Source of the DNA: an uncultured Acidobacteriota bacterium
GTDB taxonomy: Bacteria; Acidobacteriota; Vicinamibacteria; Vicinamibacterales; UBA2999
Assembly: GCA_963834325.1 (NCBI GenBank)
Contig: CAWIBL010000011.1
Coordinates: 1,094,109-1,158,108, forward strand
Length of the DNA: 64,000 nt
Direction: 5' to 3'
Shown here: positions 3,142 through 53,942 of the stretch, piece by piece
How positions within the stretch are numbered: the first letter of the stretch is position 1
Layout of the letters: each line of letters opens with the position of its first letter
Position numbers and translations under genes: made by a program
The notes under the pieces: model-generated
Seen by the model: only the letters and a program-made list of their open reading frames with translations
What the model was told of the DNA's origin: nothing
Database searches by the model: none

Positions 3142-3614
3142 GGTCCGTCGGTGGCGCGCCTGGTCACATCGACCCACGCCGCGCCGGTCAGCGCCGCCAG
3201 CCGTCCCGGCGTGATGCGCACGGCCGCATTGGTGGCCCCGGCCGCCGGCAGCACCTCGTCGAAGTCCTCGAGCGAGGCGTCGAGGTAGACGCGGAGCGGA
3301 CGGGGCAGTCCGAGCGGCGACACGCCGCCGACCGGATGGCCGGTCTCGGCCTCGACCTCCGCCGCGTCGAGCAGGCGCGGCTTGGTCTTGAACTGCGCCT
3401 TGAACTTCTGATTGTCGAGGCGCGCATCGCCGCGGGTCACGAGCAGCACCACCTCGTCGCCGAGGCGCAGCGATAGCGTCTTGGCGATGCGTCCGGGCTC
3501 GACGCCGTGCGCGTCGGCCGCCAGAGCCACGGTGGCGGTGCTGGCCGGGAGCTCGATCACGTGAATGTCGGGCGCATGCGCGGCCAGGAAGGTCTTGACG
3601 GATTGCAGGCTCAT
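3135..3614 (-). CDS. YbaK/EbsC-type aminoacyl-tRNA deacylase domain protein
   Basis: ATG at 3614 (MSLQSVKTFLAAHAPDIHVIELP). The segments GRIAKTLSL, VLLVTRGDARLD and GHPVGGVSPLG are typical of YbaK/ProX trans-editing domains. Confidence 0.75.
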   Translation of the reverse strand: MSLQSVKTFLAAHAPDIHVIELPASTATVALAADAHGVEPGRIAKTLSLRLGDEVVLLVTRGDARLDNQKFKAQFKTKPRLLDAAEVEAETGHPVGGVSPLGLPRPLRVYLDASLEDFDEVLPAAGATNAAVRITPGRLAALTGAAWVDVTRRATDGPC

Positions 3615-3639
3615 GGGGGCACGCGGAGATGCCGAGGGG

Positions 3640-4671
3640 TCACGCGATGTGCGCACCGCTGGTGTTCACGTAGACCGCGTAGAGCGACTGGCTGGCGGTC
3701 ATGAACAGACGATTGCGCCGGGCTCCGCCGAAGCAGACGTTGGCGCAGGTTTCCGGCAGGCGGATCATGCCGAGCAGTTCGCCGGTGGGCGCCAGCACCT
3801 GCACGCCCGGCCGGGCCCCCGCCCAGACGTTGCCGTCGACGTCGCAGCGGAGGCCGTCGGCGCCGCTCGGCGCGTTGGTGCCAGGAATCTGCAGCGTCGC
3901 GAACGTGCGGCCGTTGCGCAGCGCCGTTCCGTCGACGTCGAACACCCGGATGGCGCGGGGCCCGCCGGTATCGGCCACGTAGAGCTTCTTGTAGTCGGGC
4001 GAGAAGCAGAGACCATTGGGGCCGCCGAACTCGTCGCCCACCTTGTCGACCTGTCCGCTCCGGCCATCCACCCGGTAAACCGCGACGGGCAGCTCCGACT
4101 CGGACTTGACTCCCTCGTAGTTGCCGTTGATGCCGTACATCGGATCGGTGAACCAGATGTCGCCATCGGGGTGCACGACCACGTCGTTGGGCGAATTCAG
4201 CCGCTTGTTCTGATAGCGATCGGCCACGACCGACACGCCACCCCGCGGTTCGTAGCGCACCACGCGGCGGCCGCTGTGCTCGCACGACAACTGGCGCCCC
4301 TGGTCGTCGAACGTGTTGCCGTTGCTGTGGCCCGACGGCTGCCGGAAGGTCGCGACATGTCCGTCTTCGTCGAGCCATCGCAGCTGCGCGTTGTTGGGGA
4401 TGTCGCTCCACACGAGGTAGCGCCCGACGCCGTTCCAGGCGGGCCCCTCCGCCCACAGCGTGCCGGTGTGCAGACGCCGGATCGGCGTGTTGCGCACGAC
4501 ATAACGGTTGAAGCGCGGGTCGAGCGCCACGATGTCGGGATCCGGATAGGGCAGCGGATCGCCGGTCCAGACGCGCGGCGTCGGCACCGGCGACACCGGT
4601 GGCGTCTGCGCCCGGCTGGAGTTAACGACAGCCACGCCGCCCGCGACAGCGAGAAACGCTCGGCGGTTCAT
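3640..4671 (-). CDS. SMP-30/gluconolactonase/LRE-family beta-propeller hydrolase with a Tat-like signal
   Basis: 343-aa intact ORF. It starts MNRRAFLAVAGG and contains LWAEGPAWNGVGRYLVWSDIPNN, PNGLCFSPDYKKLYVADTG and CANVCFGGARRNRLFM. Confidence 0.85.
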   Translation of the reverse strand: MNRRAFLAVAGGVAVVNSSRAQTPPVSPVPTPRVWTGDPLPYPDPDIVALDPRFNRYVVRNTPIRRLHTGTLWAEGPAWNGVGRYLVWSDIPNNAQLRWLDEDGHVATFRQPSGHSNGNTFDDQGRQLSCEHSGRRVVRYEPRGGVSVVADRYQNKRLNSPNDVVVHPDGDIWFTDPMYGINGNYEGVKSESELPVAVYRVDGRSGQVDKVGDEFGGPNGLCFSPDYKKLYVADTGGPRAIRVFDVDGTALRNGRTFATLQIPGTNAPSGADGLRCDVDGNVWAGARPGVQVLAPTGELLGMIRLPETCANVCFGGARRNRLFMTASQSLYAVYVNTSGAHIA

Positions 4672-4874
4672 GGTCTTATTGCTCCTTCTGGTGACCCGGC
4701 GTTTCGTCGCCAGCCGTGCCGAGCGTGCGCGGGTTCTGGCGGGAACTCAGAGCGGCCGTGGCCGCCAGGATTCCGAGCACTACAGCGGCAATCGCGCGAC
4801 CAGGCATCGGCACTCTCCGGATCAGGCACCAGACCAACGCGGCAGACGGGCCGCCCGGCACTATACTGCGCCGC

Positions 4875-22985: not shown

Positions 22986-25931
22986 ATGGTGGCTGCTGCA
23001 CGACTCCTGCTGTTCATCTCGAGTGTGTTCGTCGCCGCGTCCTCTCCGGCCTTCGCCCAGCAACGCGGCGCGATCTCCGGGAAGGTGCTCGACCCGGATG
23101 GGCTGGCGCTGCCTGGCGCCACCGTGCGTCATCACCAACGCCGCGACCGGCTTCACCCGCGAGGCCGTCACCGCCGACACCGGCGCGTATTCGGTGCCGA
23201 GCCTCGAGCCCGGCACCTACGACGTGGCCGTCTCCATGGCCGGCTTCGGCAACGCCACCCGCACCGGGCTGGTGCTGGCGCCGGGCTCGGTCGTCACGCT
23301 CGAGTTGAAGCTCACCGTCGCCGGCGTTCAGGAGAACCTGGTGGTGACCGGCGAGTCGCCGCTCGTCGAGCGCACCAGCAACCAGATCGGCGGCAGCCTG
23401 TCGCGGCGCGAGATCGAAGAAGTGCCGTCGAACTTCCGCAACTTCACCGGCCTGACCCAGCTCATTCCGGGCATGACCCCGAATCCGGCGACCTCCACCT
23501 TCGAAGGCGGCCAGGTGGTGGCCAACGGGTCGCCGTCGCAGCAGAACGTCTACCTGATCGACGGGATGTACAACAACGACGACCGCCTGGGCGGCAGCCA
23601 GGGCACGCAGGTGCGCCTCGTCCTCGACAACATCGAGGAGTACCAGGTGCTGGCCAACCAGTACAGCTCGGAGTACGGCGGCGGCGCCGGCGCCATCATC
23701 AACATGGTGACCCGCGGCGGCACCAACGACATCCGCGGCCGCGTCTACTCGTACTTCCGCGACGAGACGCTCAACGCCCGCGGCAAGTTCCTGACCGCCG
23801 GTCAGCCCAAGCCGCCCGAGCGCACGCTGCAGGCCGGCTTCGGCCTGGGCGGTCCGATCGTCCGCAACCGCGCCCACTTCTACTTCACCTACGAGCGCGA
23901 CAACGAGGACATCGCCGGCCAGAAGCGCTTCCCGGCCGCGGCGGCGCCGCTGGCCGTGGACCAGGTCGGCTTCTTCACGGTGCGCGCCAACAACTACTTC
24001 GCCCGCGCCGACCTGCAGCTGAACGACCGCAACTTCCTCAACGGGCGCTGGCTGCTCGAGGACGCGGCCTCGCGCGGCGAGGGCTTCAACACCAACAACG
24101 CAGACCCCCGACGCCCAGGATTTCGGAGGCCGACCACGACACGCTGTGGGCCGGCACCTACACCAGCGTGATGACCGACCGGCTGTCGAGCGTCACCCGC
24201 TTCGGGCGCATCGGCGAAGAGCTGACGACGGCGCCGCAAGGCTTCTTCAACGACAGCGGCAAGGCCATCGGCTTCGACGGCCGCGACCCGTTCTCGATCG
24301 GCCAGCGCAACCAGCACGCCAGCTACATCACCGGCACCGGCGGCACCGGCCCGACCACGGTGATCCGCACCTACGTCGTCGACCAGGCGTTCAGCTACTT
24401 CATCCCCAGCCTGTTCGGCGGCGAGCACACCGTGAAGGCCGGCGGCGGTTACAGCTGGAACAACATGGACCCGCGCTCGACGTTCGATTCCGGCACCTTC
24501 CAGTTCCGCACCGACGCGCCCTACAACCCGGCCGACCCGGCCACCCATCCCTTCCAGTTCGACGTCACCGTCGGCCCCCGCAGCGACTACGGCTACGCGT
24601 GGTGTCGAAGGACCAGCGCCGCTACCTGTTCGTCGAGGACAAGTGGAGCGTCACGAGCAACCTGACCTTCAACCTCGGCCTGCGCTGGGACAACCACGAG
24701 CAGACGCCCAGCCACGACAACGCCTTCGCGCCGCGCGCCGGCTTCGCCTGGGACGCGCTCGGCACGGGACGCACCGTGGTCCGGGGCGGCATCGGCAAGT
24801 TCTACGCCTACGTGCCGGTGGTGCACGACCTGACCCTGCAGCAGAGCGGCGTCAGGACGCTGTTCCCGTCGATCTCGATCAACGCCGCCAGCCCGAATGC
24901 CAGTCTCGTGCTGATTCCCGACATGATCACCGACACCGCCGGCAACCCCGGCGTGGCCCGGCTGTCGCCCGCCGGCCAGGCGGTGCTGAACCGGTTGCGC
25001 GATGAAGTGGTCGCCGGGACCGGCTTCAACCGCAACCCGCGCATCGACAGCCCCGATCGCAAGATGCCCCACACCTGGTCGTGGAGCGCCGGGGTCAGCC
25101 AGGAGCTGTTCGGGCAGGTGGCGCTGTCGGTCGACTACGTCGCCAACGCGTCGCGCAATCAGCTCGGCGTCATCGACATCAACGAGCCGGTCAACGGCGT
25201 GCGCCCGGGCGTGGCCGCGTTCGACCCGACCGGCACGCTCATTCCGGCCGAGGCCCGCGGCGTGAGCTTCCAGCGCGTGCTGCAGTCGCAGACGAGCGAC
25301 GCTCTTCGACGGCGACTACAAGTCGATGCAGGTGTCGCTCGTGAAGCGCATGGCCAACCGCTGGAGCGGCCGCCTCGCCTACACCCTGCAGCGCAGCAAC
25401 TACGTCGGCGTCGGCAATCCCGACGCGCGCCGGGTGTGGCTCGACAACGACTCCGCGGGCCGACTACGGCGAGTTCCAGTCGAACCGCACCAACGTGTTC
25501 GCGGCCAGCGGCAGCTGGAACCCGTGGCGGACGCTCACCTTCGCCACGGTGGTCAGCGCCATCAGCGGCGCGCCGATCAACGAGACGGTCGGCCGCGACG
25601 TCAACGGCGACCTCGACAACAACGACCGGCCGATTCGCGGCATCGACGACCTGACCCGGCCCGATCGTCTCCGAGCTCGATTCGCAGGGCCGGGCCGTGC
25701 CGTTCGGCATTCGCGGCCCCGGCTCGTTCCTGGTCGACCTGTCGATGCGCTACCAGCTGCCGCTCGGCGGCCGGCTCGACAGCCTCGACTTCTTCTTCGA
25801 CGTGTTCAACGTCTTCAACCGCCTGAACGAGGTCGCGCCGACCGGCAACCGTTCGTCGCCGAACTTCCTGATTGCCGACCTCGGCCCAGTTCCCGCTGCA
25901 GTCGCAGCTCGGCATCCGGCTGCGGTTCTGA
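22986..25931 (+). pseudogene. TonB-dependent-receptor-like outer-membrane protein (CarboxypepD_reg N-domain type); about 8 frame breaks
   Basis: It has the signal MVAAARLLLFISSVFVAASSPAFAQ and GKVLDPDGLALPGATV. Later segments include ..NLVVTGESPLVERTSNQIGG.., ..YGGGAGAIINMVTRGGTN.. and ..NLGLRWDNHE. The C-terminus is FNVFNRLN...QLGIRLRF with the stop at 25929-25931. The frames used are 0,1,2,0,2,0,1,2,0. Confidence 0.85.
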
Positions 25932-26890: not shown

Positions 26891-28013
26891 TGAAGCACAT
26901 CGGCACCGCCAGCGCGGCGCTCTCGCTCCTGATCGCCGTCGGTCGTCATCGCGCAGGAAAAGGGCGGCGGCGACGAGACCGGCCCCTACGAGGTGGTGGC
27001 CGGCTGGCCCCAGAACTACTGCGGCGACGGCTTCGTCATCGGCTCGACCGGCGGCATCTGGGCGGAGAGCCCGGACCGCGTCTACATCTTCAATCGCGGC
27101 TGCCTGCCGGCGCATCAAGGACGCCCGCGGCGCGGCCGAACAGCTTCATTCCCGCCGCGCAACGCCTCGGGCTACGACCTGTCGCAGAAGGATCCGGCCC
27201 GGCACCCGCGCTGGGATCACGTGTTCAACGTGGTCGACCGCGAGCGGCAAGCTCATCGAGTCGTGGGACCAGCACAACAAGATGTTCGTGCGTCCGCACC
27301 GGGTGCTGGTCAACCCCTACGACGCCGAACGTCATGTGTGGCTGGTCGACGACGGCGCCCACGCCATCTACAAGTTCACCCGCGACGGCAAGAAGCTGGT
27401 GATGACGGTGGGCACGCCGATGCAGCCGGGCGACGACGGCACGCACTTCAACCGGCCGACCGACATCGCGTGGCTGCCCGACGGCACGTTCTTCGTCAGC
27501 GACGGCTACGTCAACACCCGCGTCGCCAAGTTCGACAAGGACGGCAAGTTCCTGATGACGTGGGGCCAGAAGGGCAACGAGCCGACCGAGACGCGGCCCG
27601 GCTACATGAACACCGTGCACGCCATCGCCATCGACAAGAACCGGCGCATCTACATCAGCGACCGGGCCAACTCGCGCATCCAGGTGTTCGACGAGAACGG
27701 CAAGTTCCTCGACGCCTGGCCCAACATCCGCCGGCCGTATTCGGTGCTGCTGTCGGAGGACCAGCACCTGTGGGTGGCCGACGGCACCACGCAGAAGTTC
27801 ACCAAGTTCGACCTGACCGGCAAGCTCCTCTACTCGTGGGGCACGTTCGGCGCGTTCCCCGGCGGCTTCTGGGGCGTGCACCAGTTCCACACCGACAGCG
27901 AGGGCAACCTCTACACCGCCGACGTGCACGTCGGCCGGCCGCAGAAGTTCCGGCCGAAGAAGGGCGCCAACCCGGCCCACATCATCGGCACCTACATGCG
28001 CGGCACGAACTGA
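26890..28013 (+). pseudogene. NHL-repeat six-bladed beta-propeller, PAL (peptidyl-alpha-hydroxyglycine alpha-amidating lyase)-like, copy 1; about 5 +1 frame breaks in the first 360 nt
   Basis: GGGGGA lies upstream of the ATG at 26890. The sequence starts MKHIGTASAALSLLIAV. It contains MQPGDDGTHFNRPTDIAWLPDGTFFVSDGYVNTRVAKFDKDGKFLMTWG, TVHAIAIDKNRRIYISDRANSRIQVF and GVHQFHTDSEGNLYTADV. ORF 27282..28013 is intact. Confidence 0.8.
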
Positions 28014-28069
28014 TCGGCGGCGCGGCGCCGCCGCGACGGCGTTCACCCTCCTGTTCGCGGAGGCCGACG

Positions 28070-29340
28070 ATGGTGCGACCCGGCTGGCTGCTCCTGTCGA
28101 TGGGAATCGTGCGCCGGTGACGCTGGCGCGGTGCGCGCCGTCCCCGGCCTCGTCCGAGAACGCGCCGGCGGCGTCCGGCTCGGCGCGCCGCCACGGTCGC
28201 CAGCGAGCGCGGCGGGCAGGAGGAGTTCGGGCCCTACGAGCCGGTGCCCAACTGGCCGCAGCCGCTGCCCGACGGCGCCGACGGCGTCACGCACGACGGC
28301 TGGACCTGGGGCTCGGTGGGCGCGGTCTACGCCGAGTCGCCCGACCGCATCTGGATTGCGCAGCGCGGCGAGCTGCCGCTGCCGCCGGGCGCGGCGCCGT
28401 GGACGCCCTACGCGATGCTGAGTCCCGTCGCGCGGCAGCGCCACCGGCAACGACGACGGCCTCGGCGCCACGTGCGAGCCTGCCGCCAAGCGCGGCTGGG
28501 AGCGCCGCTACCACCACGTCATCTTCGTCGTCGACCGCGACGGCAAGATGGTGCAGCAGTGGCCGCAGCACGACACGCTGTTCGACAGGACCTGCGGCCG
28601 CGGCCCGCACAAGATCAAGATGAGCCCGTACGACCCCGAGACAAGCACGTCTGGGTGTTCGACGATCAGCTCCACGTCATCCACAAGTTCACCTACGACG
28701 GCAAGCTGGTCATGACGCTCGGCACCAAGGGGCAGCGCGGCCGCGACGCCGGCCGGCTCTTCGACCGTCCGACCGACATCGCCTGGCTGCCCGACGGCAC
28801 GTTCTTCATCACCGACGGCTACGGCGGCACGCGCGTGGCCAAGTTCGACAAGGACGGCACGTTCCTGATGGACTGGGGCGCGGCCGCCGAAGGACCCGAA
28901 GCAACCCCGGGCCCAACGAGTGGAACACCGTGCACAGCATCGCCATCAGCGACGACCGGCGGCTGTTCATCGTCGACCGCGGTCATCGCCGCATGCAGGT
29001 GTTCGACGAGCACGGCAAGTTCCTCGACATGTGGACGCACCGGGGTGCGCTCGTCGCCCTACGCGCACTTCATCTCGACGGACCAGTTCCTCTGGGTGGC
29101 CGACGGCGGCACCATGCGGATGCTGAAGTACGACCTGAACGGCACGCTACCTCTACGGCTGGGGCGCGCCGGGTGGGCAGCCGGGCCAGTTCAACGGCGC
29201 CGCACTCCCTGACGGTCGACCAGGAAGGCAACATGTACACGGCCGAGGTCTTCGGCGGCCGGGTGCAGAAGTTCCGGCCCAAGCCGAGCGCCGACCCGGC
29301 CAAGGTGATGGGCCAGGAAGCGCGGCTGGGCGGGAGCTAG
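28070..29340 (+). pseudogene. NHL-repeat beta-propeller, PAL-like, copy 2 (paralog of copy 1); about 11 frame breaks
   Basis: GGAGG lies 7 nt upstream of the ATG at 28070 (MVRPGWLLLSMGIV). The sequence contains EEFGPYEPVPNWPQ, HKIKMSPYDPE/KHVWVFDD, LFDRPTDIAWLPDGTFFITDGYGGTRVAKFDKDGTFLMDWG, NTVHSIAISDDRRLFIVDRGHRRMQVF and HSLTVDQEGNMYTAEVFGGRVQKFRPK. Confidence 0.75.
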
Positions 29341-47935: not shown

Positions 47936-48568
47936 ATGAGCAGACGTCTTCGCTATCAGGTCGCCGCCAGCCTCGACGGCTTCATCGCCCGCGTCGACGG
48001 CGGTTACGACTGGATCGTCATGGACCCGGACATCGACTTCGCCGCGCTCTACAAAGAGTTCGATGTCGCCGTCATGGGCCGCAAGACCCACGAGGTGATG
48101 CGGGCGATGGGCGACAGCGGGCTGACGAGTTTGGAGACGATCGTGTTCTCGCGCCAGACGGCCCCTTCCGCGGTCCCCGGCTTGCGCATCACCAACGAGG
48201 ACCCGGCCACGGTGGTGGCCGGCCTCAAGGCGGCGCCGGGCCGGGACATCTGGCTCTACGGCGGCGGCGAGCTCTTCCGGACGCTGCTCCTGGCCGGTCT
48301 GGTCGATACCGTCGAAGTGGCAGTGATTCCTGTGCTGCTGGGCGAGGGCATCCCCCTCCTGCCGCCGGGCGCGAGCACCACGCTGGTCTTGAGCGACGTG
48401 AGGACGCTGCCCGAAAGCGGCATCGTGGTGCTGGCCTACGCCCTGCCGGGCGGCGTGGGCCCGGCCCCGGCCATCCACTTCCTGAAAGCGTCCGCGAAGC
48501 GAACGACCAAGCCGATGCGGGGCCGCGGCAGCCCCTCTCCCCGGGCGCGGGGCCGGGCCCGCCGGTGA
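47936..48568 (+). CDS. Dihydrofolate-reductase-like (RibD C-terminal domain) family protein
   Basis: The sequence begins MSRRLRYQVAASLDGFIARVDGGYDWIV and contains VMGRKTHE and IWLYGGGELFRTLL. The C-terminal ~35 aa are basic and low-complexity. Confidence 0.8.
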   Translation: MSRRLRYQVAASLDGFIARVDGGYDWIVMDPDIDFAALYKEFDVAVMGRKTHEVMRAMGDSGLTSLETIVFSRQTAPSAVPGLRITNEDPATVVAGLKAAPGRDIWLYGGGELFRTLLLAGLVDTVEVAVIPVLLGEGIPLLPPGASTTLVLSDVRTLPESGIVVLAYALPGGVGPAPAIHFLKASAKRTTKPMRGRGSPSPRARGRARR

Positions 48569-48644
48569 GCCGCCACTGCCGTCGTGGCCGCTGACGCCCT
48601 GGCGGCTTTCGGCTTGACCGGCGGCCGCGATGCGCGCAGACTCC

Positions 48645-48658
48645 TGAATCTGGATTCA
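48645..48658. promoter_or_regulatory. 14-bp palindrome TGAATCTGGATTCA, candidate TetR operator
   Basis: It is a perfect 6-2-6 inverted repeat ending 5 nt before the TetR ATG at 48664. A possible promoter, TTGACC (48614-48619) N17 CAGACT, lies just upstream. Confidence 0.4.
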
Positions 48659-48663
48659 TCTTC

Positions 48664-49296
48664 ATGACTCTGGCCCTCAGTCCGCGCGAGCGCCTGCGCG
48701 AATCGACCCGCGACGCCATCCTCGACGCCGCCGCCCGGAGCTTCAACGCCGGCGCCGCCGGCGCCGTGCGGATGGAAGACATCGCGGCCGGCGCGGGTAT
48801 CGCCGTGGGCACGCTCTACAACTACTTCACCGACCGGCAGACGCTCGTCGCCGCGCTGCTGCAGTCGCGCACCCAGCGCCTGCTCGACGCGCTCGACGCG
48901 GCCGCGGCCGCGGGCGCGGCCGAGGGCCATCCCGTCGCCGCCGCCGCCGTGACCGAGGAGCTGCGGCAGTTCGTGGCCACGCTGGTCAGGCATTGGGACG
49001 CCAATCGCATCCTGCTCACGCTGATGATCGAGGACCTGCTGCAGCGCGGCGCCGACGCCCGCGCCGTGCATCGCCAGCACACCGTCGCCACCCAGTTGCT
49101 GGCCCGCGCGCAGACGCTGATGGCCCGCGGCATCGACGCCGGCGTGCTGCGCCCGGCCGATACCGGCATCTACGCCGCCATGCTGCTCGGCATGGTCCGC
49201 GGCGTCGTCACCAAGTCGATCGTCGGCGGCGAGGCCGCCTTTGCGCACCACGGCGACGAGATCGTGCGCGTCTTCCTGCGCGGAGCCGCGGCGTGA
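48664..49296 (+). CDS. TetR/AcrR-family transcriptional regulator
   Basis: The HTH region is ILDAAARSFNAGAAGAVRMEDIAAGAGIAVGTLYNYFTDRQ. The 210-aa ORF is intact. Confidence 0.9.
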   Translation: MTLALSPRERLRESTRDAILDAAARSFNAGAAGAVRMEDIAAGAGIAVGTLYNYFTDRQTLVAALLQSRTQRLLDALDAAAAAGAAEGHPVAAAAVTEELRQFVATLVRHWDANRILLTLMIEDLLQRGADARAVHRQHTVATQLLARAQTLMARGIDAGVLRPADTGIYAAMLLGMVRGVVTKSIVGGEAAFAHHGDEIVRVFLRGAAA

Positions 49297-49337
49297 GCGG
49301 CCGCCGCCCTGCGTCCTCCACGAAAGCGTCACCCCCC

Positions 49338-50222
49338 ATGCCCATTGTCCGAAACGCGCCTCGCCGTCAGCTCGCGGCCGCGGCCTGGGCCATCGTCCTG
49401 GCCCTGCCGCTGGGCACGGCCGCTCAGACCCCCGCCCCGGCGCCGTCCGCCGCGCCCCAGGTCCTGCCGCTCGAACCGGCGCGTGAGCGCGGGGTCAGCG
49501 TCACGCCGGCCTTCGAGGGCTGGTATGAGAACGCCGACGGCAGCTTCACCCTGCTCGTCGGCTACTTCAACCGCAACAAGGCCGAGACCTTCGACATCCC
49601 GGTCGGGCCCAACAACCGCATCGAGCCGGGCGACATCGACCAGGGCCAGCCCACCTATTTCGCCACCGGCCGCAACTGGGGGGTGTTTGCCATCAAGGTG
49701 CCCAAGGACTTCGGCACCCGGATGCTCACCTGGACGATCGTGTCCAACGGCGAGGTGCAGGCGATTCCGCTCGGTCTCACCAAGGGCTACACCATCACCC
49801 CCTTTGTCGAATCGGGGATGGGCAACCGCCCGCCGGTCTTCACCTTCGCGCCTGGCGCGGAGAAGTTCACCGGCCCGCCCACGGCCGTCGCCGCCACCAA
49901 GGCGGCCGCCGTCGGCCAGCCGGTGACCCTGGAGGTGTGGGTCGAGGATCCCAAGCAGACCAAGGTCGGCTTGCCCTCGTCGCGCTCCGCGCCCGGCGTG
50001 GCCCAGGTCTCGTTCCACAAGTTCCGCGGTCCAGGCCGCGTGACGTTCGACCCGGTGCGGATGCCGGTGCCCAATCAGGGCGACATGGTGAGCACCAAGG
50101 CGACGTTCAGCCTGCCGGGCGAATACCTCGTGCGCGTGCAGGGCAACGACGAATCGGGCGAAGGCGGCGCTGGGTTCCAGTGCTGCTGGACCAACACCTA
50201 CGTCAAAGTGTCGGTGAAATAG
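49338..50222 (+). CDS. Secreted hypothetical protein (unknown family)
   Basis: ATG at 49338 with the signal MPIVRNAPRRQLAAAAWAIVLALPLGTAAQ. The sequence is beta-rich and ends GFQCCWTNTYVKVSVK. It lies 41 nt after TetR and 12 nt before the next gene. Confidence 0.65.
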   Translation: MPIVRNAPRRQLAAAAWAIVLALPLGTAAQTPAPAPSAAPQVLPLEPARERGVSVTPAFEGWYENADGSFTLLVGYFNRNKAETFDIPVGPNNRIEPGDIDQGQPTYFATGRNWGVFAIKVPKDFGTRMLTWTIVSNGEVQAIPLGLTKGYTITPFVESGMGNRPPVFTFAPGAEKFTGPPTAVAATKAAAVGQPVTLEVWVEDPKQTKVGLPSSRSAPGVAQVSFHKFRGPGRVTFDPVRMPVPNQGDMVSTKATFSLPGEYLVRVQGNDESGEGGAGFQCCWTNTYVKVSVK

Positions 50223-50234
50223 GGAGCCACGAAC

Positions 50235-51585
50235 ATGACCCGTGAGAACCAGAGACAGGCACGAAACGGGGCGTTGGGCCTTACGGTGCTGGCCGCCGCG
50301 CTGTGGCTGCCGGGCTCGGCCGCGGCTGGCCAGGCGCCGGCAGCGGCGCCCACCTTCTCGAAGGACGTAGCCCCGATCTTCCAGGCCAAGTGCGAGGCCT
50401 GTCACCGGCCCGACTCGATCGCGCCGATGTCGCTCGTCACCTATCAGCAGGCGCGGCCGTGGGCCCGCTCGATCAAGGCGCGCGTGCTCGAGCACCAGAT
50501 GCCGCCCTTCCAGATCGACCGCACCGTCGGCGTCACCAAGTTCAAGAACGACGAGTCGCTGAGCGACGGCGAGCTGCAGACCATCGTGAAGTGGGTCGAC
50601 GCCGGCGCGCCGCAGGGCGACCCCAAGGAGCTGCCGCCGGCCCGGGAGTGGCCGAGCGACCAGGGCTGGAACTTCGCCAAGATCTTCGGGCAGGCCGAGC
50701 CGGACCTGGTCGTCAAGTCGGAGTCGTTCACCATGCCGGCCGTGGCCCAGGACGCGTGGGACGAGCGCGTCACCCCGTCGGGCATCACCGAGCCGCGCTG
50801 GGTGCGGGCCATCGAGATCCGGCCCAACGCCGTCAAGGGCCGCAAGATCACCCACCACGCCATCGCCTACCTGCAGCAGGACGAGCCCGGCGTCGTGACC
50901 ACGCCGGGCCTGCCCGTGCCGTTCATGGAATGGGCCGTCGGCAAGCAGGGCGAGCTGATGCGCCCCGACACCGGCAAGCTGCTGCTGCCCGGCTCGAAGT
51001 TCCGCTGGGACATCCACTACTCGCAGGCCGGCGAGGAAATCACCAGCAACGTCGAGATGGGCATCTACTTCTACCCCAAGGGGCAGGAGCCGAAGTACCG
51101 CAACTCGCTGTCGCTCGTGCCGGCCGCGCTCGGCACCCTCGACATCCGGCCCAATGCCATCACCGTGAGTGAAGGCTTCTTCCCGCTCAAGGACAACGCC
51201 CGCATCGAGAGCTTCCAGCCGCACATGCACCTGCGCGGCAAGGCCATGATGGTCGAGGCCGTCCTGCCGAGCGGCCAGCGCCAGGTGCTCAGCAACGTCG
51301 AGCGACTTCAACTTCATGTGGATGACCACCTTCGTCTACGCCGACGACGTGGCGCCGCTGCTGCCCAAGGGCACGCTGCTCAAGGTCACCGCGTGGCACG
51401 ACAACACCACCGGCAAGAAGAGCAATCCCGATCCGAACCAGTGGGTCGGCTGGGGCGACCGGACGGTCGACGAGATGGCCCATGCCTGGATCAACATCGT
51501 CTACATGAAGGACGACGAGTACAAGGCCGAGGTCGAGAAGCGCAAGAGCGGCGCGGCCACGACTTCGGCGCGCGACCGGCAGTAG
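50235..51585 (+). pseudogene. Secreted CxxCH (heme c motif) protein fused to a PHM/DBH-like type-2 copper monooxygenase fold; one +1 break at ~51300
   Basis: It has a signal peptide and FSKDVAPIFQAKCEACHRPDSIAPMSL. It then has ITHHAIAY, 53 aa later WDIHYS, then FQPHMHLRGKAM, and about 90 aa later TVDEMAHAWINIVYM. Removing one base joins ..VLSNV to SDFNFMWMTTFVYADD. Confidence 0.7.
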
Positions 51586-52766
51586 AGCCGCCGGCGCCGG
51601 CGCACGATTCGGCCTTTCGCACGGATGGGGTTCGCTGGTAATCTCTCCCCGTTCGCCCGAGCAACGGCGTGCGGTTCTGTGCCTCAAGCAGGGCAGAGCT
51701 GCCGCCGATAACCCGGGTGAACTGAGCTGCTGAACTTGGGCGGAGGCGGGGCCTGGTCTCGCTGCCGTCGCGGGTCATGGCAGCGGATTTGGAGCCGCCC
51801 TGGTGCCCCGCCGCGTCCGCGTCTGCCTCGTCCTCTGCATCCCCGTGGCGTTCGTGCTGGGCGGCTGGCACGCGCAACGCGGCATGGCCGAGCAACTGGC
51901 CACGAGCGACGCGCGCCTGGCCGCGCTCGGCGACGAACTGGCAAGCAGCATCCTCGAGATGCGCGAGTGGCAGGCCGGCCCAGGCGCGGCCCGCGTGTCG
52001 GGGGGCGCGGGCGGCGAGGCCGAGCTGGTCGACGAGATCAAGCGGCAGTTGCAGCACGAGATGGGGCTGATGCCGATCAAGCTGCTGCGTGAGCGGCGCG
52101 AGAGCTTCGTCGAGCTGAACGCCGTCGACGCCGCCGGCAAGGTCGGCTACGGCACCGCCGGTTACCTCGGGAACGGTTACTTCATTACCGTGAAGCATGC
52201 GGTGGTGGCCCTCGACGACGACGGCGGCGACGGCCGGGGCCGCGACATCATCTCGATCAAGCTGCGCTACAAGGATCAGGACCTGCCGGCGCAGATTGTC
52301 GATGCCGGCGACGCCACGGCCGAAGTCCATTCCGGCGACTGGGCGCTGATTCGCGTCAAGGGCGCCATCGACCTGCCGCCCCTCCGGGTCAACGCGAGCT
52401 ACGCCTACGAGTTTGCCGACCCCATCTTCCGGCTGGGCAACGACTACTCGAAGGGCATCATCCTCAGCTCCGGCTACGTCGGCCAGCGCACGGCCAACGG
52501 GCTGGTCACCTGCCTCACCGACGGCCACCCCGGGGTGTCGGGCGGCGGCGTGCTGGATCAGCAGGGCGATCTCGTCGGCATCCCCATCGGGCGGATGCAG
52601 GGCGACTACCGCTTCTCGTTCATCCTGCCGCTGCGCGACGAGATGTTCCGCAAGTTCAAGCCCGCGGCCCCGCCAGCGCGCCGCGTTCCGGCCCCGGTAT
52701 CGGCGGCGGTGGCGGGCGAAGTGGCGCAGGCGCCGGCCCCGGCCCCGCTGGACGCCCCGGTGGCCG

Positions 52767-53759
<993 letters not shown>

Positions 53760-53942
53760 GTCATTACGATACCTGGCGGCGGGTTCCGGTTTCCTCCGGC
53801 CCAGGCCGCGACCACACCCGCGTCGTGACCTCGCCATCTCCAGTCCCGATGCAGCGCCGCGGGTGATACGCTAGTGCGTTTCCCGCGCGCCCCGGACATT
53901 CCGACGGCAGCCGCGTGTGCGTGATTGAAAGGACCAACGAGG

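Follow-up and report, generated by a model that had tools for sequence, protein, structure and literature searches.

The locus described here raises two linked questions: whether the TetR-family regulator encoded by its first gene controls the two genes that follow it, and what the products of those two genes do. The genes lie on the forward strand of the window, by which we mean the whole 64-kb stretch of DNA that was analysed. They encode the regulator (48664..49296, 210 aa), a predicted secreted partner protein of 294 aa that we designate MID (49338..50222), and a predicted cytochrome c-PHM/DBH-type copper monooxygenase, referred to below as the oxidase (50235..51585), which has 449 aa after removal of one base. 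The interpretation we favor, and to which we assign a probability of roughly 0.6, is that the three genes constitute a self-regulated TetR operon that is induced by a ligand and specifies an exported enzyme pair, and that the frameshift found in the third gene is an error. The locus is an ordinary regulatory design placed on an uncharacterised, widespread enzyme pair, and the regulatory part alone is routine.

The middle protein had been described in the initial annotation as a beta-rich protein with a signal peptide and a vicinal Cys pair near its C-terminus that matched nothing recognised, and a structure prediction of the protein alone had been proposed. The sequence and the AF2 model agree with this description. 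MID, as read from its sequence, starts with a signal-like hydrophobic segment that precedes two beta-sandwich domains in tandem, and the AF2 model is all-beta with a moderate pLDDT of 69. Searches of Pfam, NCBIfam and the PDB gave no sequence match, PKD appearing only below threshold. More than 5900 homologues of MID were found (3498 clusters at 50% identity), all of which are unnamed. The C-terminus of MID carries GFQCCWTNTYVKV, and the family has an invariant C-terminal ND.SG.GG.G.QCCW in which Q281, C282, C283 and W284, within a Gly-rich loop, are absolutely invariant among 130 sequences. A copper site formed by conserved His and Met residues was considered and rejected, as H227 and M161 are not kept in the same 130 sequences. 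All hits of a fold search with MID were generic proteins of the tandem Ig-like kind, with TM-scores of 0.27 or lower. Since MID lacks conserved His or Met residues and has a generic fold, neither feature points to a specific role.

More is learned from the neighbourhood of MID genes in other genomes. Of 80 genome loci, 78 have the MID gene next to a gene of the PHM-like family, and the two loci in which the oxidase gene is absent lack flanking DNA. The reverse test, done with metagenome sequences, found 66 of 80 loci with the genes side by side; of the 14 exceptions, 13 are without the relevant flank, which leaves 66 of 67 testable loci. MID and the third protein are a near-obligate pair; an examination of their co-occurrence had been proposed in the initial annotation. 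The pair occurs in two gene orders, with the order reversed in half of the family while the adjacency persists. Conservation of the two proteins differs, the oxidase being the more conserved (60-92% identity versus 36-90% for MID). No MID-oxidase fusion protein was present among the best 150 representatives, and the only fusions seen joined MID either to a cupin-like repeat or to an unrelated extension. In some other loci a MarR gene adjoins the pair.

The two proteins would be exported and would work as a pair, with MID as a stoichiometric partner of the oxidase, most likely a subunit involved in substrate presentation or in assembly or activation of the enzyme. N-terminal hydrophobic leaders are present on both proteins, which fits the requirement of a c-type heme for export. 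Alternatively, MID could be a metallochaperone or "caddie" that supplies the oxidase with its copper or accompanies it but remains outside the working enzyme. A precedent for such an arrangement is found in Streptomyces, where the tyrosinase MelC2, a copper oxidase, and its small obligate helper MelC1, the caddie, are encoded in one operon. As in that system, a copper oxidase gene adjoins the gene of a helper-like partner in a putative operon; the pairing is strict, and in the clade to which the window belongs MID is upstream of the oxidase and tightly coupled to it. Motifs of the Cys-Cys/Trp type are able to bind Cu(I), and the invariant Cys-Cys beside Trp in MID could do so. MelC1 and MelC2 are nevertheless unrelated to the present proteins in their folds and copper site, and both proteins encoded here have an export signal of their own. 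MID has no conserved His, neither H227 nor M161 being kept, the vicinal Cys residues of an exported protein more likely form a disulfide, the generic tandem Ig-like fold is unlike known chaperone folds, and the gene order is inverted in half of the family. A caddie function thus appears somewhat unlikely, and a role for MID as a stoichiometric subunit is preferred.

The product of the third gene had been called a heme/copper monooxygenase-like protein, a designation supported by both the fold search and the invariance of the predicted heme and copper ligands. A Foldseek search of the PDB with the AF2 model (pLDDT 65, moderate) gave as its top 30 hits only PHM or DBH structures, with E values from 1.3e-9 to 8e-7 and a probability of 1.0; normalisation to the query gives TM-scores to these structures of 0.33-0.41, and normalisation to the target gives 0.45-0.56. 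At the level of sequence, the oxidase does not match Pfam Cu2_monooxygen or Cu2_monoox_C even at E<=10, has no NCBIfam match, and has no PDB sequence match at E<=1. A paralogue in related loci matches Pfam Cu2_monoox_C with an E value of 2.9e-4 and 20.8 bits, which is below the cut-off of 23. Curated cytochrome c models likewise score below their cut-offs with the oxidase (17 bits versus 27 for Cytochrome_CBB3 and 16 versus 24.4 for PccH).

Invariance of the candidate ligands was counted over 144 family members that share 25-87% identity. The heme-binding motif CxxCH is represented by C53-E-A-C56-H57 (50391-50405), in which C53 is kept in all 144 members and C56 and H57 in 143 each, and M89 of the third protein, the distal Met typical of class I c-type cytochromes and the likely sixth heme ligand, is kept in 144 of 144. 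The copper ligands were equated with those of PHM by their order and spacing rather than by residue-level superposition. By this criterion, the CuH site consists of the His-His pair H207/H208 (50853-50858; 143/144) and a third His, H261 (51015-51017; 144/144), and the CuM site consists of the His-x-His motif H330-M-H332 (51222-51230; both His 144/144) and M414 (51475-51477; 144/144). The oxidase would accordingly be a mono-heme c-type cytochrome joined in one polypeptide to a two-domain, PHM/DBH-type copper core, in which H207, H208 and H261 hold the copper that transfers electrons and H330, H332 and M414 hold the copper that activates oxygen. The fused heme would replace ascorbate by drawing electrons from periplasmic carriers and passing them to the first copper, and at the second copper O2 would be activated for the hydroxylation of a C-H bond in a periplasmic substrate.

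PHM, dopamine beta-hydroxylase and tyramine beta-monooxygenase share with the bacterial oxidase a fold of two beta-sandwiches and the ligand pattern HH..H plus HxH..M with similar spacing, and they are extracytoplasmic, as the oxidase is predicted to be. To our knowledge, nearly all known copper monooxygenases of this type come from animals, in which they produce amidated peptides and noradrenaline. The enzyme described here differs in being bacterial and periplasmic with an obligate, separately encoded partner, in lacking a Pfam or PDB sequence match to the copper domains, and in possessing an N-terminal c-type cytochrome in place of ascorbate or a DOMON domain. A heme domain that supplies a copper monooxygenase outside of the cytoplasm has a parallel in cellobiose dehydrogenase, whose cytochrome domain feeds electrons to LPMO, although heme c and copper core here form one polypeptide and the copper site is of a different type. 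Literature searches turned up neither a bacterial cytochrome c-PHM fusion nor its partner. More than 8000 close matches to the bacterial oxidase were identified, mostly in soil and sediment metagenomes and in MAGs of Acidobacteriota, suggesting that bacteria have a very large PHM/DBH-type family, one that retains the full set of copper ligands and in which a fused cytochrome c would replace ascorbate.

Conceivably, the PHM-like protein does not hydroxylate C-H bonds at all and has put the two-copper scaffold to another use, as a periplasmic electron-transfer protein or an oxidase that, for example, reduces O2 or some other small oxidant with electrons from cytochrome c. Conservation of 60-92% across orders and the presence of a built-in cytochrome are more reminiscent of core redox metabolism than of niche catabolism. 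Such a function is unlikely nonetheless, given that the full set of PHM ligands, including the CuM methionine, is invariant, and that control by a ligand-sensing TetR in this clade and the MarR gene by the pair in others suggest inducible small-molecule chemistry. Hydroxylation of a periplasmic substrate therefore remains the preferred function of the oxidase.

The initial annotation had the third gene extend to 51585. The gene is indeed present over this interval, but it is not a single open frame, as there is a frameshift near 51299. Alignment of the DNA with that of four relatives (L081, L004, L007 and L008) places an extra base at 51299/51300 within GTCGAGC (51297..51303), where the relatives have GT-GAGC. 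Removal of the base restores ..LSNVSDFNFMWM.. as found in the homologues, and the resulting alignment is free of gaps across the repaired site. The phase of GC3 flips at the site, the matches to 77 homologous proteins are split there into two frames, and the deposited product of the third gene (P0167) is a read-through of 468 aa.

The break could mean that the third gene has genuinely become a pseudogene, in an operon that is undergoing decay here, since the 1-nt insertion truncates the frame upstream of the CuM methionine and lies outside any homopolymer run. The frame downstream of the insertion, however, is intact, is 80-90% identical to homologues, has no further lesions and displays full GC3 bias. 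Defects of the same type are seen in related loci from long-read MAGs (L033), and the 64-kb window contains at least six other conserved genes with similar single frame breaks supported by homology, including breaks near 23150, 28900, 55950 and 57400. Because of these other breaks an assembly error is favored, and it is the most likely cause of the break in the third gene; that the gene is a pseudogene seems improbable.

With the third frame read as intact, the three genes are on the same strand and are separated by only 41 nt (tetR to MID) and 12 nt (MID to the oxidase gene), the gaps originally reported. Directly after the stop codon of MID is GGAG (50223..50226), the ribosome-binding site of the third gene, 8 nt from the ATG at 50235. 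No terminator was detected by a sequence scan between 48300 and 52000, and promoter and terminator scans together with folding revealed neither a promoter-like site nor a stable hairpin between the three genes. Independent promoters or terminators between the genes had been named at the outset as findings that would speak against an operon. Among relatives, the spacing between tetR and the MID gene ranges from a 4-nt overlap (ATGA, in L161) to 41 nt, and the order TetR-MID-PHM is kept in seven loci in which TetR identity is 60-88%. The proposal of autoregulated co-transcription, which the gene order and spacing support, thus appears sound. Rfam searches of the whole window gave no RNA family matches.

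A single transcript carrying tetR, MID and the heme-copper gene would start from a sigma-70-type promoter, the one recognised in the initial annotation as TTGACC-N17-CAGACT, with a -35 hexamer TTGACC at 48614..48619 and a -10-like hexamer CAGACT 17 nt further on at 48637..48642. The palindrome noted at the same time, TGAATC-TG-GATTCA (48645..48658, 14 bp, unstranded), is perfect, ends 5 nt before the tetR ATG at 48664, covers the expected transcription start and is the presumed site of a TetR dimer. A strict promoter scan omits the promoter (48614-48642 falls below its threshold) because CAGACT fits only three of six positions. Inverted repeats as such are also common by chance, since the window, which is 71% GC, has 273 perfect repeats with 6-nt arms and a spacer of 0-4 nt, and about 0.4 would be expected in the 95-nt intergenic region. 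Arms with at least four A/T are rarer, occurring in just three of the 273, and the pattern TGAATC-TG-GATTCA occurs only once in the window.

Promoter and operator are convincing, and their real support comes from conservation across loci. A cassette consisting of TTGACx, a spacer of 17-18 nt, CA(G/C)ACT or CACTAT, 2-6 nt, TGAAT(C/T)NNGATTCA, 4-5 nt and ATG recurs in L001, L004, L007, L033, L081 and L161, where the flanking DNA has diverged. The -35 and -10 elements and the palindrome alike precede tetR in each of the TetR relatives inspected. TTGAC(C/G/A) is equidistant in six related loci, the -10 region of relatives retains gcgCA(G/C)ACT or CACTAT, and the half-sites of the palindrome are invariant across six aligned loci. 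Each TetR-bearing locus has a single copy of the operator pattern, and the 155 other loci among the first 160 have none. The palindrome is conserved along with the TetR lineage in 13 loci, some of them from relatives whose target genes differ, which is the behavior expected of a cognate operator. That the palindrome might act as an RNA hairpin was rejected, because a 2-nt loop cannot fold and the folding energy is no better than that of shuffled sequence. On the strength of these patterns, TetR probably binds the palindrome, and the bound dimer would block RNA polymerase until a small ligand frees it.

The regulator belongs to the TetR family: residues 19-65 match Pfam TetR_N with 44.8 bits (cut-off 24, E 1e-11) and the C-terminal ligand-binding and dimerisation domain matches TetR_C_24 (29.9 bits, cut-off 26.4) and TetR_C_29 (28.6 bits, cut-off 26.2). 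Homologues at E<=1e-20 fall into 119 clusters. Relatives with 40-53% identity use the same operator and head MFS-MFP-OMF or RND efflux operons, in which the regulated genes are directly 3' of tetR with 4-nt overlaps; since these genes abut tetR, the lineage typically heads its operon. The site in these relatives is TGAA-N6-TTCA, and the -10 element in the same place is TATACT, TAGACT or TATGCT. The present regulator resembles TetR/AcrR repressors of efflux operons in joining a TetR_N helix-turn-helix to a TetR C-terminal domain, in having a palindrome over its own promoter, and in being encoded by the first gene of the operon that it would control. It differs from them in that the targets are a periplasmic redox enzyme pair rather than a pump, the -10 element is weaker (CAGACT versus TATACT), and the start codon is 4-5 nt past the operator instead of overlapping it.

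The association of this TetR with the pair is confined to a narrow sub-clade, being seen in 5 of 80 loci from genomes and in 1 of 80 from metagenomes, and the order TetR-partner-oxidase is found only where TetR identity is at least about 57%. TetR might therefore control only itself, with MID and the oxidase gene expressed from a promoter inside or just after tetR and the adjacency incidental. About 150 of 160 loci contain the pair but lack this TetR, and as the pair occurs in this form in more than 150 loci, it must have other promoters elsewhere; the TetR relatives at 40-53% identity control unrelated genes. Such an arrangement is quite improbable at this locus, though, as the shared gene order persists over seven loci whose TetR proteins have diverged to 60-88% identity, spacings from a 4-nt overlap to 41 nt leave no room for a separate intergenic promoter, no promoter-like site lies between the genes, and the efflux-type relatives show the lineage heading its operon. 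We retain the reading in which TetR governs the whole three-gene operon.

Heme enzymes that modify a partner protein are known from MauG, which acts on methylamine dehydrogenase, and from MbnH, which acts on MbnP; like those systems, the present one has a periplasmic heme redox enzyme encoded next to a beta-sandwich protein in which Trp and Cys residues are invariant, but there is no sequence or specific fold kinship and the enzyme here has a single heme and two coppers rather than being a di-heme peroxidase. That MID is itself the substrate, with the oxidase converting a residue of QCCW into a protein-derived cofactor or crosslink and MID being the functional end product, would fit both the obligate association between a redox enzyme and a small beta-sandwich protein and the absolute invariance of QCCW in its Gly-rich loop, but it is very unlikely, as the oxidase is more conserved than MID, which is unusual for a dedicated maturase.

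The regulator offers a clue to the chemistry. As the nearest TetR relatives run MFS and RND efflux pumps through the same operator, a hydrophobic or toxic compound of exogenous origin is, by analogy, the most likely inducer, and either this compound or one related to it is probably what the enzyme oxidises. TetR and its defined operator provide an experimental handle, in that the ligand of TetR should point to the substrate of the enzyme.

A more far-reaching proposal, which we regard as a long shot, is that the pair is the core of a widespread ascorbate-free periplasmic PHM-type system, in which a hydroxylase fed by cytochrome c, a vicinal-disulfide partner and, in some lineages, a PAL-like NHL propeller carry out a bacterial alpha-hydroxylation and amidation of peptides or N-acyl amino acids. 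If that were true, the hormone-amidating enzyme of animals would descend from, or parallel, a system common among soil bacteria. Genes for TonB-dependent receptors adjoin the pair in 24 of 80 loci; this adjacency was rejected as evidence because about three such receptors are encoded per 64 kb here, and a similar rate is predicted by chance. An NHL (PAL-like) propeller, in which the active site of PAL may be conserved, is encoded next to the pair in about 10 of 80 loci, a frequency not above the base rate from the window, and its recurrence in both gene orders is suggestive.

The regulatory design of the operon is ordinary for the TetR family, and its interest lies in the structural genes, which belong to an unnamed pair, strongly conserved and very widely distributed, that encodes MID, the secreted 294-aa middle protein, and the oxidase, in which a cytochrome c is fused to a copper monooxygenase-type protein. 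In it a known catalytic scaffold carries a fused cytochrome c and goes with an obligate, uncharacterized partner; a literature search found no description of such a pair. More than 5900 homologues of MID were found, all unnamed and without Pfam domains (3498 representatives at 50% clustering), together with at least 8000 homologues of the third protein, most of them 74-92% identical. Co-occurrence of the MID family with PHM-like genes, which the initial annotation proposed as a check, is seen across both collections: the third gene adjoins MID in 78 of 80 genome loci found with MID, the remaining two being without flanking DNA, and MID adjoins the third gene in 66 of 80 metagenome loci retrieved by a search with the third protein. 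Thirteen of the 14 metagenome loci without an adjacent MID have no flank on the relevant side. The other, L119, is a real exception: its oxidase homologue of 69% identity (3454-4731) is flanked on each side by over 1.2 kb of DNA that includes no MID gene, and the homologue is immediately followed by a canonical terminator. Oxidases with 69% or more identity to that of the window have MID upstream, and more distant members have it downstream; retention of the pair through this reversal of order favors a functional connection over inheritance of synteny. A TetR of the window type stands beside the pair in only five of the 80 genome loci and one of the 80 metagenome loci; the link of TetR to the pair is clade-specific.

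The third protein had been called heme/copper monooxygenase-like, and its predicted fold and conserved residues bear this out. No Pfam or NCBIfam model covers the protein, for which only sub-threshold cytochrome c matches were obtained, and a profile search of PDB sequences returned nothing significant. When its AlphaFold2 model (pLDDT 65) was compared with PDB folds, all 30 top matches were to peptidylglycine alpha-hydroxylating monooxygenase (PHM) or dopamine beta-hydroxylase (DBH), with E values of 1.3e-9 to 8e-7 and a probability of 1.0; the next matches were 100-fold or more weaker and unrelated. Residues assigned to the heme (C53, C56, H57, M89), the first copper (H207, H208, H261) and the second copper (H330, H332, M414) are invariant or nearly so among 144 family members ranging down to 25% identity. 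The HH..H plus HxH..M pattern resembles that of PHM and has similar spacing, and in the third protein a c-type heme motif lies N-terminal to it. From the residue pattern and the modeled fold, it is concluded that the third protein would function as a copper monooxygenase of the PHM/DBH type that draws electrons from its own cytochrome domain. Its enzyme class is assigned as likely; structurally it is a distant relative, and it stands outside the curated sequence families. A longer paralogue of about 800-950 aa, consisting of a TlpA-like redoxin, a CxxCH cytochrome, a PHM-like core and TPR repeats, has a weak match to Pfam Cu2_monoox_C (E 2.9e-4, below the cut-off). It lies downstream of the pair, after a TonB-dependent receptor, in comparison loci L040, L041, L046, L049, L051-L054, L058, L064, L068, L069 and L076.

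MID is modeled (pLDDT 69) as an all-beta protein of two sandwich domains, and fold comparison matched it to generic tandem Ig-like proteins at a TM of at most 0.27. Across 130 sequences at 36-81% identity, E60, W62, R79, D101, Q104, R112, D124, W132, D204, R230, Y263, N270, D271, Q281, C282, C283 and W284 are invariant, as are many Gly, Pro and Asn residues, and the distinctive feature is a Gly-rich loop ending in QCCW. Any specific role for MID is put forward tentatively. A stoichiometric subunit is favored; MID could instead be a copper or assembly helper, or possibly a protein substrate modified at QCCW. The motif of its N-terminal domain (GYxNxN..PxGxxNR..PG..DRGQPT.F) is repeated seven times in tandem in large, unrelated proteins, suggesting that this domain is probably a general scaffold. 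A His/Met copper site within MID is unlikely, as H227 and M161 vary among the 130 sequences. Proteins listed for motif repeats or MID fusions are P0345 (983 aa), P0357 (943 aa), P0246 (558 aa) and P0245 (424 aa); the large repeat proteins are apparently surface proteins, and the fusions carry two cupin-like repeats (P0246) or another C-terminal extension (P0245).

In the window, a -35-like TTGACC (48614-48619) is followed by a 17-base spacer, a -10-like CAGACT (48637-48642) and the palindrome TGAATC-TG-GATTCA (48645-48658), 5 nt before the TetR ATG at 48664. The tetR gene ends at 49296, the MID gene occupies 49338-50222, and the third gene, preceded by a GGAG directly 3' of the MID stop codon, begins at 50235. 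The palindrome, hexamers, spacings and gene positions of the initial annotation were all read back in the sequence. A strict promoter scan did not call TTGACC/CAGACT because CAGACT agrees at only three of six positions. The palindrome alone is little proof, since perfect inverted repeats with 6-nt arms and short spacers are common in the window (273 at a G+C of 71%, or about 0.4 expected in the 95-nt region 5' of tetR); A/T-rich arms occur in only three of the 273, and the TGAATC-TG-GATTCA pattern occurs once in the whole window. An RNA hairpin at the palindrome was rejected, as folding prediction forms none there. A terminator between the genes had been named as evidence against an operon, and a scan from 48300 to 52000 found none; for both intergenic gaps and the region 3' of the third gene, predicted folding is no stronger than that of shuffled sequence.

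The first protein belongs to the TetR family (TetR_N, 44.8 bits against a cut-off of 24), with two TetR C-terminal models also above their own cut-offs. In all six other loci whose TetR is at least 55% identical over the aligned part (L001, L004, L007, L033, L081, L161), a cassette lies 5' of tetR in which TTGAC(C/G/A), 17-18 nt, CA(G/C)ACT or CACTAT, and 2-6 nt precede the palindromic TGAAT(C/T)NNGATTCA, itself followed by 4-5 nt and the ATG; the DNA around it is not alignable among those loci. In the 160 loci that were collected first, TGAATNNNGATTCA picks out exactly the five with a window-type TetR, once each and always at the same position. A protein search with TetR gave 119 clusters at E<=1e-20, and gene context splits by identity to the window TetR. 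L161 (60% identical) heads TetR-MID-oxidase, its tetR stop overlapping the MID start by 4 nt, and in six relatives (40-53% identical) tetR is the first gene of an MFS-MFP(-OMF) or OMF-MFP-RND efflux operon. Each efflux-type locus with DNA available has one TGAA-N6-TTCA site at the tetR start, 6-8 nt 3' of TATACT, TAGACT or TATGCT. The operator-like site tracks the regulator and not the regulated genes, which is the behavior expected of TetR's own operator over the transcription start, and the palindrome is accordingly termed its putative operator there. A repressor encoded by the first gene, with its operator over its own promoter, is the usual TetR design. The architecture of TetR, operator and operon is given a probability of roughly 0.8, and the overall interpretation is supported with the caveats that TetR is linked to the pair in one clade and that the third gene has a frameshift, probably a sequencing error. 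In the efflux-type loci L162-L166, the A/GTG start of tetR overlaps the first operator bases 6-8 nt after a TATACT-like -10, so these tetR mRNAs look leaderless; in L166 the true start is probably some 56 nt upstream of the called GTG.

The third gene has no continuous reading frame; a one-base frame break near 51300 had been missed. Translation from 50235 leaves the homologous frame there, and the remainder is in the +1 frame. Alignment with four relatives places one extra base in GTCGAGC (GT-GAGC in the relatives); once it is deleted, ..LSNVSDFNFMWM.. is recovered and aligns without gaps to 31 homologues, and the GC3 phase also switches at this point. In the public annotation the product is a read-through of 468 aa (P0167). 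Homologous proteins are also split into two frames at about 23150, 24100, 24600, 28900, 30800, 57400 and 60100, and a TonB receptor gene has a GC3 phase flip at about 55950. Such breaks occur about once per 8-10 kb in conserved genes, including two TonB receptors, an NHL propeller and an MFS/ATG22-like transporter, and damage of the same kind is present in L033, a related locus of a long-read MAG. The break in the third gene is probably an assembly error, and the breaks across the window look like residual indel error of a long-read assembly; their number calls for care with any ORF-based reading of the window.

Elsewhere the pair lies near TonB-dependent receptors, the redoxin-cytochrome-PHM-TPR paralogue, NHL propellers, MarR, and radical SAM plus ATP-grasp genes. 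Adjacency of TonB receptors was dropped as a sign of a link, since they are so frequent in these genomes as to be uninformative. The NHL propellers give a full-length profile alignment to the lyase (PAL) domain of the animal amidating enzyme (E 7e-39, positions 58-350 against 24-321), and their genes lie directly upstream of the pair in about 8-10 loci, in both gene orders; their frequency beside the pair is not above the base rate estimated from the window. An association of these putatively PAL-like propellers with the pair is a lead, not a finding. Six-bladed NHL propellers occur at 27200-29320 (+) in the window and in L025, L027, L035, L036, L030, L045, L074, L077, L061 and L062; in the tandem pairs of L025 and L027, the MID-adjoining copy is without the His/His/Arg positions, which are kept in the other ten. 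Radical SAM and ATP-grasp ligase genes follow the pair in four loci (L039, L043, L048, L057) and a MarR-family regulator gene in three (L020, L021, L032), so lineages differ in the neighbors and regulators that they attach to the pair. Past the oxidase in the window, a trypsin-like peptidase gene (51803-52801, +) that is not conserved in relatives precedes a luciferase-like monooxygenase gene (52767-53837, -), which is syntenic with the pair in L002, L003, L004, L006 and L026.
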